A DNA stretch of 64,000 bases from Candidatus Doudnabacteria bacterium (GCA_041644975.1 JBAZQX010000006.1:9761-73760), one strand, 5' to 3'. Positions 33,057 through 48,406 are shown, counted from the first letter of the stretch. Notes: generated from the sequence alone by a model not told the origin. Made by a program: numbers and translations.

Positions 33057-33665
33057 TTATTCCACCAACCTTCCTTTGACAATGAGTCTTTTCAGCGGCG
33101 TTCCAACCGGCCAACAAGTCATTAAGGAAATAGTGGGTTCGGAAGTGGATGCTAACACCTGCACTTCGTTTTCGGAAACAATTATTTTATCAATGACTCT
33201 ATATAAATATTCTTTACCCTGATAATATACTTTGATTTCGTCATTTGTTTCTAATTTATCCAAGAGAGCGAAAATATCTTTATAATCTCCTTTGCGCCAA
33301 ATATAATCTGATGAATGGCCAAGGATAAAATAATTCCCTACCTCCCCTGAATTTGCCGTCCCCGGATAATGGACGACGCCGTTCTCTAGACCCTTTTGAA
33401 TCGTGCTCTCTTGACTATTCTCCACCTCAATGACTGGCACATTCACATTAATTTTAGGGATGATGAGCCGAGTTTCCGCTGGAATCCCCTCCTCGCGGGA
33501 GGGCTTCTCTAAAATAGTCCGGATTACTTCCGCCTTGGGATATTTAGAATAAAAATAATATTCCGCCTGCTTCACCAAAGCCTGATAATTGATCACTCCA
33601 AAAACCACGGCTAAAAACAAAACCGCGTAGATTATTCTTTTAATTAAACGGAGGGGATGAAACAT
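33057..33665 (-). CDS. sortase family transpeptidase
   Basis: N-terminal TM; conserved His (ILGHSS) and catalytic Cys in the TLxTC-like motif ISLMTCWP. Confidence 0.7.
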   Translation of the reverse strand: MFHPLRLIKRIIYAVLFLAVVFGVINYQALVKQAEYYFYSKYPKAEVIRTILEKPSREEGIPAETRLIIPKINVNVPVIEVENSQESTIQKGLENGVVHYPGTANSGEVGNYFILGHSSDYIWRKGDYKDIFALLDKLETNDEIKVYYQGKEYLYRVIDKIIVSENEVQVLASTSEPTISLMTCWPVGTPLKRLIVKGRLVE

Positions 33666-39340: not shown

Positions 39341-40822
39341 TTGGGAGTGAGTAAAATCAAAACAAATATCCTACCCCAAAACAAGGGCGGGACACATAAA
39401 ATGAATATCAAGACTATTCTCAAATGGTTCGTGCCGTATAAGAACAATCAATATCAACCTTACGCTCTGCGTAAAAAGGCGCTTACCTTTTATGTCGCCG
39501 TGATTTTCATACTGAAGGCGAGCGTCGGTTTTTTGTTTTTCGCTTTTCCGGAAACCGCCTATCTCTCTCAAGTGAGCATTAAAGAAATCGTAGACCTCGC
39601 GAATCAATCTCGCGCCGAGGTAGGTCTCGCTCCCCTTAAACTGAATGCCAAATTAAATATCTCGTCCGCGGGAAAAGCCGAAGATATGATGACGAAGCAA
39701 TATTTTGCCCATAACTCGCCCGAGGGCGTGGAGCCTTGGTATTGGTTTGAGAAAGCGGGCTATCCCTACACCTACGCGGGAGAAAATCTGGCTCTCGGTT
39801 TTGAAACAAGCACGGGCGTGCATCAAGCTTGGATGAATTCCAAAGGTCACCGCGACAATATTATCAATCCTAATTACAAAGAGATTGGCGTCGCGATTAT
39901 TTACGGCAATTTTGAAGGCAGTTTCACCACGATTATTGTTCAGCATTTCGGCTCTATCGAATCCACAACTCCCCAAGAAGTCCCTGCCTATCCGCCTCCG
40001 AAAAAAGAAACCCCGGCGCCGACCACCCCGCCTCAAACCCCGGCGAATCCCGACCGCACGGCTCCCGCTCCCCCGCGCATTCTAACCCCCGATCCCCGCA
40101 CGCTGACGAATAATAAAGAAGTAACCATCACGGGACAAGCCGAAAAAGAAAGCACAGTTTTAATCTATGAAAAAAACCAAAAGATCGGCCAGACCAAAGC
40201 TACTAAAAATAACCGCTTTAATTTTGCTTCCGCTTCCGATTTTTCCGATGGCGAACATTCTTTCCGCGCCATGGCGGTGGATAAAGCAGGAAACCGCAGC
40301 GCTTTCTCTAAAAGCGTGGCGGTGGTCATTGACACAACTCCGCCGGTAATTGATATGGAAAAATCATATATCCTGCCCACTTATCTTAATCCGCTTAAAA
40401 CCTTTGATGTCTTCGCTTATGTGACTGGCGAACCGGTGGAAGTCAAAGCCACTGCCGGTCAAAATGAAGTTATTCTCAAAGAAAAAGAGGCGCATCTCTA
40501 TCGCGGCGTTATTAACCAATCAACAAGCGGGGTCTGGGTTCAAACGAAAGATGCCGCCGGCAATGTTGCCAAGGCAAAATTAAACTTTACCCAAAATGTC
40601 AGCAGCGAGCGCGACCTGCATCTGGTGAACTCCGACAATAGTTGGACGCTTTTCTTAAACACACTGGATCAAACTAGCCGCAATCTTATTATAATCTTTA
40701 GCGCCGCGATTATGATTCTTCTGCTTGTAAATATTCTTGTGCATATCAAAAAACAAAACAGTAAAACCATCAGCTCTGTCTTGCTGATTATCCTTATTAA
40801 CGGTCTTCTCCTGGCGGCTTAA
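39341..40822 (+). CDS. CAP (SCP/PR-1-like) domain cell-surface protein with Pro-rich linker, Ig-like domains and C-terminal TM
   Basis: CAP motifs (FAHNSPEG ... GENLA ... WMNSKGHRDNIINPNYKEIGVAI); likely start at MNIKTILKW (39401). Confidence 0.7.
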   Translation: MGVSKIKTNILPQNKGGTHKMNIKTILKWFVPYKNNQYQPYALRKKALTFYVAVIFILKASVGFLFFAFPETAYLSQVSIKEIVDLANQSRAEVGLAPLKLNAKLNISSAGKAEDMMTKQYFAHNSPEGVEPWYWFEKAGYPYTYAGENLALGFETSTGVHQAWMNSKGHRDNIINPNYKEIGVAIIYGNFEGSFTTIIVQHFGSIESTTPQEVPAYPPPKKETPAPTTPPQTPANPDRTAPAPPRILTPDPRTLTNNKEVTITGQAEKESTVLIYEKNQKIGQTKATKNNRFNFASASDFSDGEHSFRAMAVDKAGNRSAFSKSVAVVIDTTPPVIDMEKSYILPTYLNPLKTFDVFAYVTGEPVEVKATAGQNEVILKEKEAHLYRGVINQSTSGVWVQTKDAAGNVAKAKLNFTQNVSSERDLHLVNSDNSWTLFLNTLDQTSRNLIIIFSAAIMILLLVNILVHIKKQNSKTISSVLLIILINGLLLAA

Positions 40823-42120: not shown

Positions 42121-43389
42121 ATGAAAAAAATTATTCTAGGCTTAGTTGCTGTGGTCGCTATCGTCGGCGGCGTCATAGCGATGTCCGCCTTTGAGGCGCA
42201 TGTCGTCAATGTCACCGCGAAAATTGAAAATGCGTTGAATGTACCAATTACAGAATTGGGATTCGGTACGGTCTTCCCCGAAGAAGTCCTTAATAAAACC
42301 CTGGCTGTGAACTTAAGCGAATCTTTTAAAGAAGCAGCGGGTTGCAACACAACAAACTTGATTCAAAACGGTGGATTTGAGACACCAGAAGTGACGGACG
42401 CGGCCAAGTGGGAAATTTTCCCCAGTGGTGCCACAGGGCTTTTTTGGACCATTGGATGGGAACCCGGACAGTCAACTACCTATGGCGGACAAACTCGTCC
42501 GGATCCGGCCCTCAAAGAACTACAAGAAGGTGTCAATGGTTGGCTCCCTGCCGAAGGCGACCAATATGCTGAGCTCGATACTGATTGGTTTGGACCGGGT
42601 AACCCCTTAAGCGGCGAACCTGCTCGTGTCAACATCTACCAGAATATCACCACGACCATCGGCAATACCTACAAGCTCACTTACAAGTATTCACCGCGAC
42701 CTGGTGTAGGTGCAGACAATAATACACTGATTGTCCGCGTGAATGACAGCCAAGTAGCAACTCATTCTGCTGTTGGAGGCAGTAATACCATCTGGACTGA
42801 ATACACTTATGAGTTTAAAGCGACGGGTACCACAACCAAGATTGAATTTGCAGCAGGTGGCGCTTCCGATTCTTTGGGTGTTTTCTTGGATGATGTAAAA
42901 CTAGTTGAATGCGGTCGGGTCAATACGGTTGATTATGTCGTTCGTCAGAAGCCCAAGTGTGTTGACGACACTAATCTTTCCATTCATCCCCAAGTCACTC
43001 ATAACACAAATGGCGATTTTGCTTGCCCTAGAGGTTCAACGATGATGCCTTTACTCTGTCCTTATCTCTCTAAATCAGAAACAACGAGTGATGGCGAAGG
43101 CAAAGATAATGATGGCACGCCAATTACAGCCTTTCACGGACCGCTTACTGGCTGGACAATGGCAAATACGGAGGCAAATCAAGTGAAAGGAAAGCTGTCC
43201 GCGGCCATTAAGGACATTGCGGATGAATGGCTGATTGATCTCCATGTGCCCTGTTTCAAAGGGATGTGTGCCCAAGACAATGTAATTCCGACAGATTACC
43301 AAGCCGATCCAACACTCGAACATGCAGTCTTCGGCTGTGATCTCTGGCTGGAAGTAACAGGCATTGATCAGGAGCAACCGGCTCCGTAA
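42121..43389 (+). CDS. secreted protein with SipW-cognate-like N-terminus (TasA/camelysin-like module)
   Basis: Signal anchor then SAFEAHVVNVTA and ITELGFGTVFPEEVLNKTLAV module shared with 43482, 44520, 45847; first gene of the sipW cluster. Confidence 0.45.
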   Translation: MKKIILGLVAVVAIVGGVIAMSAFEAHVVNVTAKIENALNVPITELGFGTVFPEEVLNKTLAVNLSESFKEAAGCNTTNLIQNGGFETPEVTDAAKWEIFPSGATGLFWTIGWEPGQSTTYGGQTRPDPALKELQEGVNGWLPAEGDQYAELDTDWFGPGNPLSGEPARVNIYQNITTTIGNTYKLTYKYSPRPGVGADNNTLIVRVNDSQVATHSAVGGSNTIWTEYTYEFKATGTTTKIEFAAGGASDSLGVFLDDVKLVECGRVNTVDYVVRQKPKCVDDTNLSIHPQVTHNTNGDFACPRGSTMMPLLCPYLSKSETTSDGEGKDNDGTPITAFHGPLTGWTMANTEANQVKGKLSAAIKDIADEWLIDLHVPCFKGMCAQDNVIPTDYQADPTLEHAVFGCDLWLEVTGIDQEQPAP

Positions 43390-43481
43390 CATAAAGACAA
43401 CCTTGAATTCACTTTAGCTAGTTTTCATTGTTGATCGTTTCCCCTCTGCTTCTGCTTTAGGCAGACGGAGGGGAGGGATCA

Positions 43482-44018
43482 GTGATGAAATCATCAAAAA
43501 AAATTATGCTTGAAAATAATTCGGAAGAAGAAAAGAACCCCGAAAACGAAACGGAAAATCCAGCCCAAAAATTAATGTCCAAAAAAAAGGCAGAAAAGCC
43601 GCAAAGAAAAAGAAAGGTCGGGCGCACTATTGGCTATGTAATCATTGCCATTATCGCGGTCTTTATTGTTGTCCAGCTTTTGAGCGCTTCCTATTACAAG
43701 ATGACGGTCAATGTCGTGGAGGGTGAAAACGTGGTCGGGGTCAATCCCACTGCGGACAAATTAGATTTTGGCGACCTTTCCCGCGGCAGTGGTATGACCC
43801 GCTACATAACTTTAAAAAGCGCGGGAAAATCCCCAAGTTACATTATTGTCTGGAAATTTGGCGGCGTTGCCTCGCTCATTAAGGTGGAAAAAAACTACTT
43901 TACACTTAATTCCGGTGAAGAGGTAAAAATTACTTTTTCTCTTACCATTCCTCCTTCCGCCCAAACCAAACACTATAACGGTCAAGTGATTATTTTCAAA
44001 CTACCCAAGATTTTCTAA
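43482..44018 (+). CDS. small membrane-anchored protein with the same conserved N-terminal module
   Basis: TM then SASYYKMTVNVVEGE ... LDFGDLSRGSGMTRYITLK. Confidence 0.4.
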   Translation: MMKSSKKIMLENNSEEEKNPENETENPAQKLMSKKKAEKPQRKRKVGRTIGYVIIAIIAVFIVVQLLSASYYKMTVNVVEGENVVGVNPTADKLDFGDLSRGSGMTRYITLKSAGKSPSYIIVWKFGGVASLIKVEKNYFTLNSGEEVKITFSLTIPPSAQTKHYNGQVIIFKLPKIF

Positions 44019-44020
44019 GT

Positions 44021-44512
44021 ATGAAAAAGATTTTGAAATATTTTCAAAAGCGTAAGGAAGAAAAATGCACCCAAGCGGAAGAATTAAGTAAGAGGCAAAG
44101 AATTTTCCGGAAAGCTATCGGTTATGTATTTTATGTTGGGATTTTAATTGGACTCTTCTACGGCACACCCAAAATTCTATCCTATCTTCTAAATACTAAA
44201 TATCCTTTTGCGTCAATTACATCGGGGTCAATGTGGCCAGTCTTAAAGAAGGGAGATCTCGCCTTGATCTGCAGTGCGGAACCTAGCGAAATCAAAACGA
44301 ATGATGTCGTGGTTTTCCCTAATGAAAATGGCGCTTTAGCAATCCACCGGGTAGTTAAAATAAATGGCGATAAAATTATTACCAAAGGAGATGCCAACAC
44401 TAAAGAAGATAAACCAATCAACCGCTCCGACATCTTGGGCCGACTTTGCACAGTGGGTTCCCTTGAAGCAAAAATCCCCAAACTCGGATTAATCGCTCCA
44501 CTTTTTCACTAA
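44021..44512 (+). CDS. sipW: signal peptidase I, SipW-like (ER/archaeal type)
   Basis: S26 boxes SGSMWPVL, GDL, IHRVV (His instead of Lys general base), GDAN; start 3 nt after the upstream stop. Confidence 0.7.
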   Translation: MKKILKYFQKRKEEKCTQAEELSKRQRIFRKAIGYVFYVGILIGLFYGTPKILSYLLNTKYPFASITSGSMWPVLKKGDLALICSAEPSEIKTNDVVVFPNENGALAIHRVVKINGDKIITKGDANTKEDKPINRSDILGRLCTVGSLEAKIPKLGLIAPLFH

Positions 44513-44519
44513 ATTATTT

Positions 44520-45824
44520 ATGCCAAAGATGAGTAGTAAAAATAAATATTTAACTCTTGGTCTCCAAACAATACTAGGGATATTTATTGTTTTTGTTTCA
44601 ACTTTCTTCTGGGCAAATAAATCATTTGCTTATGAAGCGCATGTGGTGGGCGTAACGGCGATGTTTCAAAATTATGTTTGCGGCGATGGCAATCTTAATC
44701 CCGGCGAGGAATGTGATGATGGCAACAACAGTAATGGCGATGGCTGTTCGGCAACTTGCGTCCTTGAAAAAACACCTAGTTGCATGAAAATTAACGAGGT
44801 CTATTATGATCCAGATGATGCGCATGGCGGCGGGGATGCCGAATGGATTGAACTTTATAATGCTTGCGGATATCAAGTTAATCTTAAAAATTGGTATTTG
44901 AAAGACAATACTAAAACGGAAACCATCCATCAAAATTATATTATTAACCCAGATCAATTTGTAGTTCTCGCACCCAATGCTTCAATTTGGGAAAAATACT
45001 GGGATATTACCCCTACGAACGCCATAAAAATCGCTTTGGGCGGAGGACAAAAAATGTTTGATAATCTAGCGAATGACGGCGATCGGGTTTTCCTTTATGA
45101 TAATCACGATAATGGGATTGACGCGGTAAGCTGGGGAACAGACACAACCGCTTTTGACCCGAACGTCCCCGGTGTTGCCGAAGGCTATTCTATTGCCCGT
45201 ATAGTCAAGGGCGTGGATACGGATAAAGCTGCTGACTGGACAGATTTAACTACACCCAACCCGGGCACCAATCCCCATTCAACAATCAAAACAACTATTC
45301 CTGAACCGCCTAAATTACCAACCAGTAATCTTAACATCGCTGGCGACAGCACTCCCACAACCACCGATACGATTGTCGGCGATGCCACTGATTCCACACC
45401 AAATAATAATCTTCCAACTAATGATTCCACGCCCGCGACTGAAAATAACATAATAACCGACCCCGGCGATTCCACGCCCGCGACTGATACCCTTGAGGGA
45501 GAAGAACAAAAAGACATACCCCCTGCCTTAGAACCAAATGAAAACCAAGAAGACAATAATAGCGCGGAAAATCCTGGTGAGACAGAAAATATTTCTCCTC
45601 CCTCCGGTTCTGATGATTCTCAAACCGATTTAGCGCAAGAAGACCCTGTAACAGACAATACGCCATCTGAAGAAGGCATCAATAATACCGATTCATCCCT
45701 ATCCCCGCCCGAAAATCCAGAGCCAGAAGAGGAAACCAGTACAACCAATAACCCAGAATCAAATTCTTCTTCTGAATCTCCTCCCCCTAACCCCGCAGAA
45801 GGCACGGAAAATAATTCCTCTTAA
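44520..45824 (+). CDS. secreted protein with Cys-rich repeat, lamin-tail domain and Pro/Ser/Thr-rich acidic tail
   Basis: N-terminal AYEAHVVGVTA; CGDGNLNPGEECDDGNNSNGDGCSATC repeat; LTD signature AEWIELYNACGYQVNLKNWYLKD; antisense ORFs 45185-45805 are low-complexity artefacts. Confidence 0.55.
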   Translation: MPKMSSKNKYLTLGLQTILGIFIVFVSTFFWANKSFAYEAHVVGVTAMFQNYVCGDGNLNPGEECDDGNNSNGDGCSATCVLEKTPSCMKINEVYYDPDDAHGGGDAEWIELYNACGYQVNLKNWYLKDNTKTETIHQNYIINPDQFVVLAPNASIWEKYWDITPTNAIKIALGGGQKMFDNLANDGDRVFLYDNHDNGIDAVSWGTDTTAFDPNVPGVAEGYSIARIVKGVDTDKAADWTDLTTPNPGTNPHSTIKTTIPEPPKLPTSNLNIAGDSTPTTTDTIVGDATDSTPNNNLPTNDSTPATENNIITDPGDSTPATDTLEGEEQKDIPPALEPNENQEDNNSAENPGETENISPPSGSDDSQTDLAQEDPVTDNTPSEEGINNTDSSLSPPENPEPEEETSTTNNPESNSSSESPPPNPAEGTENNSS

Positions 45825-45846
45825 ACTCTCTGTATTTATAATTTTT

Positions 45847-46644
45847 ATGATTAAGTTGGACCGCAAATTAAAACGAGTCCTCTTTCCTCCCCAAGAAAAA
45901 AGTTTTAGGGCTAAATTATTTATTTTCTTAACAGGAGCAATAACCCTCGTTTTATTTTTCTTCATTCTGCAAGTAGAAACAACGCGCGTCTCGGCGCAAG
46001 CCTTGCCTATTGCTGTTTCAATGAATCATATTGATTTTGGTTTGGTCTTTCCCGGGGAGAGTCTGGAAAAAAACTTTACTGTTTATCTTGCCAATGGTTA
46101 TACCGAAAAAGTAAATTACACGTTAACTCAAAGGAGAAAGCCCCTGCCGCTTGAATCCGAGATTAAGGAAGATCCAAATATGCCCGGTTTCTATCGCGAC
46201 CTCTGCCCCTTTCTCACCAAAACCACTAAAGAGGGGGAAGGTGATTTGGAAATCAACGCGTCGGTGGCACCCACCACTGATCTTACCGATAAATGGCTGA
46301 TTGACTTGGCAGTCCCAGCGCTGGAAGGCTATGTGGCTCAAGAACACGGTGATAAGATAGTGAAGATTGCCGGCGACTATGGCTGTGATATCGTGATTGA
46401 TATTGAGCTACTTAAAAAGAATGGTACAGACGGAAATGGAGCTGGCGGCGGTCCAGAATGGTTTTGGCAGGATATGAATCTTGCGGGAGCCATGGAAACA
46501 GCCACATCTCCAATTAAAAAAGTTGCGCAGGCAGCAGTCAAGTTACCGGCGAAACTCCCCCGCGTTGGCGCGTGGAGCGCGCTTATTGCCGCCTCAATGG
46601 GCTTAATCGCGACAGCAACCTTTTACAGAAGGAATAAAAAGTAG
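45847..46644 (+). CDS. secreted protein with conserved N-terminal module and sortase-like C-terminal signal
   Basis: IDFGLVFPGESLEKNFTV module; C-terminus LPRVGAW + hydrophobic helix + RRNKK. Confidence 0.45.
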   Translation: MIKLDRKLKRVLFPPQEKSFRAKLFIFLTGAITLVLFFFILQVETTRVSAQALPIAVSMNHIDFGLVFPGESLEKNFTVYLANGYTEKVNYTLTQRRKPLPLESEIKEDPNMPGFYRDLCPFLTKTTKEGEGDLEINASVAPTTDLTDKWLIDLAVPALEGYVAQEHGDKIVKIAGDYGCDIVIDIELLKKNGTDGNGAGGGPEWFWQDMNLAGAMETATSPIKKVAQAAVKLPAKLPRVGAWSALIAASMGLIATATFYRRNKK

Positions 46645-48010: not shown

Positions 48011-48406
48011 TTATTTCCTAGGCTTGAGCTCAATTTCTTCTTTCTGGTAATCAAACTTAACCATGAAAAGATTGAAAAATCCTTTTTGACCAACAACACC
48101 ATAACCTAAACGTGCAATCTCCGGAAGAAATCCAACCTTTATTGCGTAACACCAGCCACCTACCTTAACCTTTACGGGATGGATATAATAAGGCTGCACT
48201 ACTCCCGTGATGCCTCCCACTTTTTGTTCCTCTCCTTCATAAATATCAATACCCAAAACTTCTCCAATTTCGGCATCAAAAATGCAAAAATCCGCCCCCG
48301 AGTCTATCAAAACCTCATAAGGGACGGAATTGCTTTTATAACTAATCTCAATCGGAATAATAGGACGAATAATTCCTCTTCCGTATTTTTTGTATTTGAA
48401 TTTCAT
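48011..48406 (-). CDS. retropepsin-like aspartic protease (clan AA)
   Basis: 131 aa; LIDSGAD catalytic DSG motif. Confidence 0.7.
   Translation of the reverse strand: MKFKYKKYGRGIIRPIIPIEISYKSNSVPYEVLIDSGADFCIFDAEIGEVLGIDIYEGEEQKVGGITGVVQPYYIHPVKVKVGGWCYAIKVGFLPEIARLGYGVVGQKGFFNLFMVKFDYQKEEIELKPRK

Follow-up and report, generated by a model that had tools for sequence, protein, structure and literature searches.

A signal peptidase operon of Candidatus Doudnabacteria and other candidate phyla radiation bacteria that may encode a donor-strand surface fibre

In a 64-kb stretch of DNA from a Candidatus Doudnabacteria bacterium (hereafter, the window), we analyzed an operon at positions 42121-46644, which consists of five open reading frames (ORFs) on the + strand, one of them coding for a signal peptidase. 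The genes are co-directional and the intergenic gaps downstream of the second gene, P2, are 2, 7, and 22 nt, so that the tightly spaced, co-directional set of five genes in a preliminary description of this DNA was borne out by the ORF coordinates. Identical copies of P1 and P5 from a Candidatus Doudnabacteria metagenome-assembled genome exist in the databases under the names 'DUF642 domain-containing protein' and 'hypothetical protein', respectively; the protein family is thus unannotated. The five genes are as follows.

42121-43389, + strand: P1, 422 residues, with a signal peptide, a 13-residue N-terminal segment (Nte), and a beta-sandwich core that has a DUF642 domain inside
43482-44018, + strand: P2, 178 residues, with a charged N-terminal tail, a transmembrane (TM) segment, a strand, and one ASH/PapD-like immunoglobulin (Ig) domain
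44021-44512, + strand: signal peptidase, 163 residues, signal peptidase I of the endoplasmic reticulum (ER)/archaeal type
44520-45824, + strand: P4, 434 residues, with a signal peptide, Nte, a Cys-rich repeat, a lamin-tail domain (LTD), and an acidic S/T/P tail
45847-46644, + strand: P5, 265 residues, with a signal-anchor, a minimal core without Nte, and a putative C-terminal sorting signal

The signal peptidase scored 75.1 bits on TIGR02228, the model of archaeal/ER signal peptidase I (cut-off 51.85), and 44.1 bits on the bacterial LepB-type model TIGR02227, which is under the cut-off of 47. Its sole significant relatives in the PDB were human SEC11A and SEC11C. When the sequences were aligned, the boxes SGSMWP at residue 68, IHRVV at residue 108, and GDAN at residue 123 were in register with SGSMEP, VHRV, and GDNN of SEC11A/C, and His, not Lys, is paired with the catalytic Ser. 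Based on this alignment, Ser70 and His109 together with Asp124 or Asp130 are likely to be the catalytic residues. Judged by its sequence, the enzyme is an ER/archaeal-type (Ser-His) signal peptidase I, which is SipW-like in class and not LepB-type. The preliminary description had read the same class from the His-containing boxes, and both the TIGR02228 score and the SEC11A/C alignment agree with it; a grouping with the housekeeping LepB-type enzymes was not seen, considering the TIGR02227 score below the cut-off. On the equivalog model of Bacillus SipW itself (NF046067), the enzyme scored 39.7 bits, far below the cut-off of 190. While the HMM (hidden Markov model) score above the cut-off and the aligned Ser-His boxes are shared with the SEC11/TIGR02228/SipW class, the operon enzyme differs from that class in that it is short, has a single N-terminal TM segment, and always has a P2 gene directly 5' of its own gene.

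According to the preliminary description, all four proteins around the peptidase share a signal-anchor followed by an EAHVV-type or related segment. The motif [FYW]EAH[VIL][VIL].[VIL][TS]A occurs twice in the six frames of the window, in P1 and P4, each time right after the signal peptide.

42190-42228, + strand: Nte of P1, F24-E36, FEAHVVNVTAKIE, the predicted mature N-terminus with cleavage after A23
44631-44669, + strand: Nte of P4, Y38-Q50, YEAHVVGVTAMFQ

The claim therefore stands exactly for P1 and P4, is reduced to a weak look-alike in P2, and fails for P5. In P5, the predicted mature start (QALPIAV, directly after VSA) aligns past the P1 segment, approximately 13 residues further in. 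We refer to proteins that have both Nte and the core, such as P1, as strand+core, to those with Nte and no core, such as P4, as strand-only, and to those with the core and no Nte, such as P5, as core-only; in core-only proteins in general, Nte is absent or truncated. Among 74 homologues, which were picked by overall similarity without reference to the Nte motif, A23, E25, A26, H27, N30, V31, T32, A33, and I35 are near-invariant. Positions outside the search pattern are conserved as well, with Ala at -1 in 143 of 144 sequences, Asn7 in 144/144, Ile12 in 143/144, and Asn14 in 142/144. The conservation reaches 13 residues deep in strand-only proteins and 18 in strand+core proteins. Internal copies of Nte between domains were sought in the family members and none was found; the seeming cases turned out to be ORFs whose starts had been placed too far upstream.

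By BLASTP (1e-7), P1 and P5 are homologues in two blocks, one N-terminal and one C-terminal. The N-terminal block reads ELGFGTVFPEE in P1 and IDFGLVFPGE in P5, and the C-terminal block follows LCPYLSK...WLIDLHVP...GCDLW. Between the two core blocks of P1 sits the following domain, which is missing from core-only homologues of 232-254 residues.

42343-42915, + strand: DUF642/choice-of-anchor-C domain of P1 (residues ~75-265; PF04862, TIGR04362), a CBM4-like jelly roll

Only this insert was matched in the databases; the core of P1 and P5 had no match in Pfam, NCBIfam, or PDB sequences, and a search with the core profile against PDB sequences found no chain. The AlphaFold2 model of P1 had a pLDDT (predicted local distance difference test score) of 86 with residues 1-35 disordered, and in a Foldseek search with this model the insert matched the carbohydrate-binding modules (CBMs) CBM4, CBM16, and CBM61. 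Because the CBM-like insert dominated the results of full-length P1, we modelled P0060, a core-only (insert-less) homologue that is 56% identical to P1 over the BLAST-aligned segment (36% of P1), and used the model (pLDDT 92.5) for the fold search. The best match was the TasA fibre 8aur_A (E 0.012, TM-score 0.37), followed by donor-strand pilins; all matches were weak, and none in the PDB reached E <= 1e-3. The fold predicted for the core is an Ig sandwich of the ASH/PapD-like kind, and it resembles the TasA fibre and donor-strand pilins only weakly. In the monomer models, Nte was not packed on its own core, with a pLDDT of ~33 in P1 and of ~72 without secondary structure in P0060. Six cysteines are near-invariant in the strand+core proteins (C280, C302, C313, C378, C383, and C406 in P1), and their conservation suggests three disulfides; P5-type proteins retain just two of the six (C120 and C180). 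The preliminary description had also placed a conserved LDFG-type module in all four neighbours of the peptidase. The corresponding 'L-x-FG' start of a beta-sandwich is present in P1, P2, and P5 and is not found in P4, so that the claim applies to three of the four proteins. Strand+core relatives of P1 carry DUF642, vWA, SpaA-like, or LTD inserts, or no insert at all.

The N-termini of the operon proteins had been likened to those of TasA and camelysin, and this likeness was not recovered at the sequence level. PF12389 had no match at E <= 1 in P1, P2, P4, and P5, nor in 30 members of the core family, and TIGR04088, the model of the SipW-cognate signal, was likewise absent from the NCBIfam matches of the operon proteins at E <= 1. 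The genuine TasA-type N-terminus reads G-T-x-A-[YF]-F-[SN]-D versus A-F-E-A-H-V in the operon. Matches of P1 that are annotated as 'TasA family' or 'M73 metallopeptidase' have the DUF642 insert alone in common with P1 and a TasA-type N-terminus of their own. When the core alignment was compared with the TasA/M73-type alignment by hhalign, only 26 columns were aligned, and these belong to the signal peptide. We therefore rejected the TasA/M73-annotated matches as evidence of TasA homology. We regard the P1/P5 core as a new Ig-like sandwich family that is not demonstrably part of TasA. As a separate observation, closely related DUF642 domains with 46-60% identity to the P1 insert also lie inside genuine TasA/M73-type proteins (P0052, P0084, P0091, P0095, and P0116), one of which is annotated as Heimdallarchaeota. 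The insert follows the N-terminal strand region at a comparable position in the core family and in the TasA/M73-type proteins, and this pattern in the sequences suggests that DUF642 domains have been shuffled between two different fibre scaffolds.

In the family alignment of P2, the TM segment ends in a near-invariant Ala69, which is followed by a KYxAxVxV-like strand and one Ig-like domain. The segment SYYKMTVNVVEGEN of P2 is only loosely similar to Nte, and a profile-profile comparison of P2 with the core family by hhalign was weak (probability 25%, E 7.5e-4). The P2 family comprises 332 cluster representatives; 28 of 50 members matched the ASH model PF15780, 16 of 50 matched PF22544, and the family profile matched HYDIN ASH domains in the PDB at 8.7e-12. 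Since P2 of the window is by itself below the threshold in the Pfam search, its ASH assignment is made via the family. At the level of family profiles, P2 is an ASH/PapD-like Ig superfamily domain, and we propose that it is an accessory protein, either chaperone-like or a minor subunit. P4 has Nte directly behind the signal peptide and no core domain. Its Myxococcus-type Cys-rich repeat, lamin-tail, and acidic S/T/P tail, which follows the lamin-tail, are as the preliminary description gave them for one of the neighbouring proteins.

44679-45137, + strand: Cys-rich acidic repeat and lamin-tail of P4 (residues 54-88 and 90-206; TIGR02232 45.9 bits, PF00932 61.9 bits)

Scanning species-representative genomes gave 75 loci, and the ORFs of 80 loci were sorted into classes by HMMs built for this analysis. 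All lineage-named records belong to the candidate phyla radiation (CPR): Ryan-, Giovannoni-, Azam-, Taylor-, Wildermuth-, Vogel-, Portnoy-, Harrison-, Uhr-, and Doudnabacteria, and Paceibacteria. This statement covers the lineage-named records; some third-party records carry unverified generic labels, among them 'uncultured Gammaproteobacteria' and 'uncultured Candidatus Saccharibacteria'. The operon system thus appears to be restricted to CPR bacteria. All five genes recur in a close relative (L001), and a distant one (L002-L004) keeps the order with extra subunits. P2 and the peptidase are both present in 62 loci, and P2 lies directly 5' of the peptidase in 62/62, with at least one strand+core gene upstream in 62/62 and all classified genes on one strand in 61/62. 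Among the loci without a peptidase, 15/16 are contigs that end within 1.4 kb. Where at least 2.5 kb of sequence remain beyond the peptidase (51 loci), a strand-only gene comes next in 36, a core-only gene is found downstream in 22, and a strand+core gene is downstream of the peptidase in 0/51. The consensus order is one to four strand+core genes, a strong hairpin, P2, the peptidase, a strand-only protein with adhesin-like domains, and a core-only protein. Conservation of the cluster in related genomes, which the preliminary description proposed to check, was thereby observed as gene order held in the 62 loci with P2 and the peptidase.

Domains found on strand-only proteins are LTD, CBM_4_9, CHB_HEX_C/Fn3_assoc, and SdrD/SpaA, or else a GYWKNHEGC domain without family assignment. 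In the commonest of them (~215-360 residues), a Cys-containing motif, S-[LMI]-GYW-[KR]-NH-[ED]-GC, stands immediately behind Nte (examples are L007:14857-15870, L014:12617-13690, L023:2890-3918, L048, L058, L059, and L064), and this subfamily has no match in Pfam or NCBIfam. On the 5' side of one distant operon, L002:4522-6084 codes for a 520-residue protein that contains a (TP)n repeat of great length, is anchored by a TM segment at its C-terminus, and has no counterpart in the window.

The end of P5 and a sortase gene elsewhere in the window are the features related to anchoring.

46555-46641, + strand: putative sortase-type sorting signal of P5, with LPRVG, a hydrophobic segment, and RRNKK; a variant motif
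33057-33665, - strand: sortase, 202 residues, ~8.5 kb upstream of the operon on the opposite strand (PF04203, 91.9 bits)

Both had been pointed out in the preliminary description and are confirmed by the sequence and by PF04203. The sortase is above the cut-off of TIGR01076, and no class-specific NCBIfam model reaches its cut-off. The P5 signal has the three-part layout, and no NCBIfam LPXTG-anchor model matched it. Among all classified proteins, C-terminal LPxTG-like signals were found in 7/39 core-only, 0/152 strand+core, and 0/35 strand-only proteins, with the motif variants LPRVG (the window, L001, and L075), LPRTG (L063 and L073), LPKTG (L043), and LPATG (P0126). A sortase is within reach in 6/7 signal-bearing loci versus 3/73 others (Fisher p 1.9e-6), so that co-variation with sortase, which the preliminary description proposed to check for the cluster, was found for the sorting signal. 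The arrangement of sortase and operon in the window recurs in L001 and L075, and the sortase at 33057-33665 is the probable partner of the P5 sorting signal. Three other proteins (P0127, P0128, and P0129) combine an unrelated N-terminal domain with an end of ~60 residues nearly the same as that of P5 (window 46400-46644), GPEWFWQ...ATSPIKKV...KLPRVGAW...RKNKK. From its sequence, this C-terminal module of the P5 type looks like a lineage-specific portable sorting cassette.

The gap between P1 and P2 contains an RNA element.

43432-43481, + strand: RNA stem-loop between P1 and P2, overlapping the ribosome-binding site of P2 (minimum free energy -34 kcal/mol, z -3.6)

The hairpin is long and near-perfect, and hairpins are located at the equivalent spot, the gap between the last strand+core gene and P2, in L001, L002, L005, L024, L032, L040, L077, and others. 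The hairpin exceeded every control window of the preceding gene in 46/64 loci, and its sequences are unrelated between loci. We propose that it is an intra-operon attenuator or an mRNA-stability element. Such a placement is what we would expect if the upstream genes code for abundant structural subunits and the downstream genes for low-copy assembly and end components.

On balance, we lean towards the reading that this conserved and apparently CPR-restricted operon specifies a surface fibre that depends on the dedicated ER/archaeal-type signal peptidase and is probably built by donor-strand exchange. The combination of three protein classes, a fixed gene order, a dedicated peptidase that would create the free N-terminal strand, and an Ig-like core fits a polymer built by donor-strand exchange. 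In the proposed mechanism, all five products would be exported by Sec, and the peptidase would cleave after the invariant Ala to release Nte (FEAHVVNVTAKIE in P1) as an amphipathic beta-strand, which would enter the beta-sandwich core of the adjacent subunit. P1, having both strand and core, would polymerise as the shaft and show one CBM-like DUF642 domain per subunit. P5, having a core and no strand, could only accept a strand, and its attachment to the wall by sortase would make it the base. P4, having a strand and no core, could only donate, and would cap or initiate the other end in the manner of TapA, presenting the lamin-tail and Cys-rich domains. P2 would reside beside the peptidase as a membrane-anchored ASH/PapD-like protein with an Nte-like strand, serving as a chaperone-like holder or a minor subunit, and the hairpin behind P1 would keep the dosage of the downstream assembly genes low. 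In TasA, residues 28-38 at the mature N-terminus are a donor strand, and TapA starts assembly with an N-terminal strand resembling it (PMC9674648, PMC10151520); we assigned P1, P5, and P4 to the shaft, base, and cap because of these strands and of the strand-less and strand-only end proteins of the Pam pilus described below. The fibre would likely mediate multivalent adhesion, either to a host cell or to a surface. Taken together, the dedicated export and assembly pathway for a fibre or adhesin that the preliminary description suspected is supported in part, by the peptidase class, the conserved operon, the co-variation of sorting signal and sortase, and a logic like that of tapA-sipW-tasA, and is not supported as far as membership in the TasA family is concerned.

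A more far-reaching form of this reading, which we put forward tentatively, is that the operon represents a second CPR-specific class of pilus, found in Parcubacteria-group, Doudnabacteria, and Uhrbacteria records. In this class, the peptidase would license donor-strand exchange at the membrane, a sortase-anchored strand-less base would give a polarity opposite to that of chaperone-usher and Pam pili, and each shaft subunit would present a lectin or adhesin domain that can be swapped; the invariant Glu, His, and Asn of Nte and the invariant Lys of RQKPKC might form isopeptide-type links between subunits.

Several points weigh against the fibre reading. Strand insertion and an open groove in the core are proposals, the models being of single chains. 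Nte is located at the cleavage site, where its conservation could reflect recognition by the peptidase alone, and a plain donor strand would not usually have invariant polar residues such as E2, H4, and N7. The accessory role of P2 is tentative, and the similarity of P2 to Nte is statistically weak. Moreover, LPRVG has no canonical Thr and 32/39 core-only proteins have no anchor, because of which the base/tip polarity may differ between lineages.

The observations on Nte could also be explained if the operon were a sorting system only, with Nte as a recognition tag for the peptidase and the tagged proteins as independent adhesins or lectins that form no polymer. The exact position of Nte at the predicted cleavage site fits such a tag, its invariant polar residues would suit recognition by an enzyme, and it is fused to domains as different as DUF642, vWA, SpaA-like, LTD, and CBM_4_9; enzyme/cognate-signal pairs such as SipW with TIGR04088 provide a precedent, and polymerisation is inferred rather than directly evidenced. 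We nevertheless regard this explanation as rather doubtful, considering that the conservation extends 13-18 residues into the mature protein and that a tag-free core exists, which is always last in the operon and is the sole form with wall anchors. A fixed order of strand-only, strand+core, and core-only proteins suits a polar polymer and is needless for sorting, and the SipW-cognate conserved region of TasA is itself a donor strand (PMC9674648). It seems unlikely that the core instead belongs to the TasA/camelysin family (PF12389) as a true member that has diverged strongly, which would make the operon simply a TasA operon. TasA was the top Foldseek match, the operon contains a SipW-class peptidase, the same DUF642 insert occupies a comparable position in genuine TasA/M73-type proteins, and PF12389 homologues have been noted in Patescibacteria (PMC9245690), that family being different from the operon core; against these, all sequence tests were negative.

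The least probable alternatives, to which we give very little weight, are a covalent pilus of the Gram-positive type polymerised by sortase and a surface layer (S-layer). Sortase-built pili require a sorting signal on every pilin. A nearby sortase gene, SpaA-like domains in some family members, and the monoderm-like cells of CPR would agree with a sortase pilus, and they are opposed by the lack of sorting signals in every strand+core and strand-only protein and by the presence of a sortase within 10 kb in just 8/80 loci. The S-layer, which the preliminary description had offered as an option, found nothing specific in its favour: the data contained nothing particular to S-layers, for instance SLH domains or lattice domains of another kind, and an S-layer does not require strand-only and core-only partners.

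The genes around the operon in the window include a 23S-rRNA-IVP protein, L10/L12, and YceG, which agree with a CPR/Patescibacteria origin of the DNA. Three neighbouring ORFs are recorded here.

39341-40822, + strand: close upstream of the operon, a 493-residue protein with a CAP domain, a Big_13/Big_6 Ig domain, and C-terminal hydrophobic segments, which has a counterpart in L001
41714-42064, + strand: immediately 5' of P1, a stand-alone 23S rRNA intervening-sequence protein (PF05635, four-helix bundle), of which the L001 copy is elsewhere in the neighbourhood
48011-48406, - strand: a 131-residue ORF, retropepsin-like aspartyl protease (PF13650, 28.3 bits)

The CAP-domain protein may be a further surface protein.

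CPR/Patescibacteria are generally assumed to live in attachment to other microbes, and to our knowledge the mechanism of contact has been established for only a minority of them. The only characterised CPR filament that we found in the literature, type IV pili aside, is the Pam pilus (preprint, 2026), and we found no account of the operon in the literature on SipW or TasA in Patescibacteria, CPR, or Parcubacteria. The operon is a strong candidate for the Pam-equivalent structure in Parcubacteria-group lineages, Doudnabacteria, and Uhrbacteria. The model is testable, having a defined 13-residue strand, a defined protease, and defined end subunits. If it is true, the principle of SipW and donor strands would reach beyond the TasA family, and the swappable inserts (DUF642/CBM, vWA, LTD, and SpaA-like) would be prime candidates for determinants of host specificity.

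The closest logic is that of Bacillus tapA-sipW-tasA. In both, a signal peptidase of the ER/archaeal class is dedicated within the operon, the major subunit is a beta-sandwich with a conserved mature N-terminal segment, which is the donor strand in TasA, the N-terminal strand has a look-alike on an accessory protein with another domain (TapA and P4), and there is no chaperone-usher machinery. Unlike the Bacillus proteins, the operon core has no relationship to PF12389 and no TIGR04088, its predicted fold is nearer to an ASH/PapD-like Ig domain than to the TasA jelly roll, and its peptidase is not of the SipW equivalog. The CPR operon further adds the universal P2, a strand-less core-only subunit, which has a sortase signal in some loci, and inserted adhesin domains. 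Chaperone-usher pili (Pap/Fim) and the archaeal donor-strand fibres (AbpA bundling pili, threads, and cannulae) have no sequence similarity to the operon proteins. In this comparison, the operon system further has no usher, outer membrane, or periplasmic two-domain chaperone, and it includes a dedicated signal peptidase and, in some loci, a sortase.

The Pam pili of CPR were described in Ca. Mycosynbacter amalyticus, where a strand-less (PamT) and a strand-only (PamR) end protein were proposed (10.64898/2026.03.03.709456). Like the operon, the Pam system is CPR-specific and has Ig-like subunits, paired cysteines, strand-less and strand-only end proteins, and membrane-anchored PapD-like accessory proteins (PamC and PamD, comparable to P2), with donor-strand exchange in the absence of a trans-envelope machine, which for the operon is our proposal. 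Compared with the published description, Pam pilins are two-domain proteins that donate an inter-domain linker, whereas in the operon proteins a single core has the strand at its mature N-terminus. Neither a signal peptidase nor a sortase belongs to the published Pam operon, while the window has both, with the peptidase inside the operon, and P2, with one domain and an N-terminal TM segment, contrasts with the two-domain Pam chaperones, whose TM segment is C-terminal. The strand-only PamR is membrane-anchored, while in the window it is the strand-less P5 that would be anchored, which implies the opposite polarity. Pam was reported mainly in Saccharimonadia and Microgenomatia (10.64898/2026.03.03.709456), whereas the named records of the operon are from the Parcubacteria group, Doudnabacteria, and Uhrbacteria. 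Based on the architecture and operon content set against this description, we rejected an identity of the operon with the Pam system. In comparison to these systems, what is new here is a SipW-class peptidase that seems to be coupled to a donor-strand-type fibre of an unannotated CPR protein family, with a sortase-anchored end subunit in some loci, the mode of assembly being deduced from the features described above.

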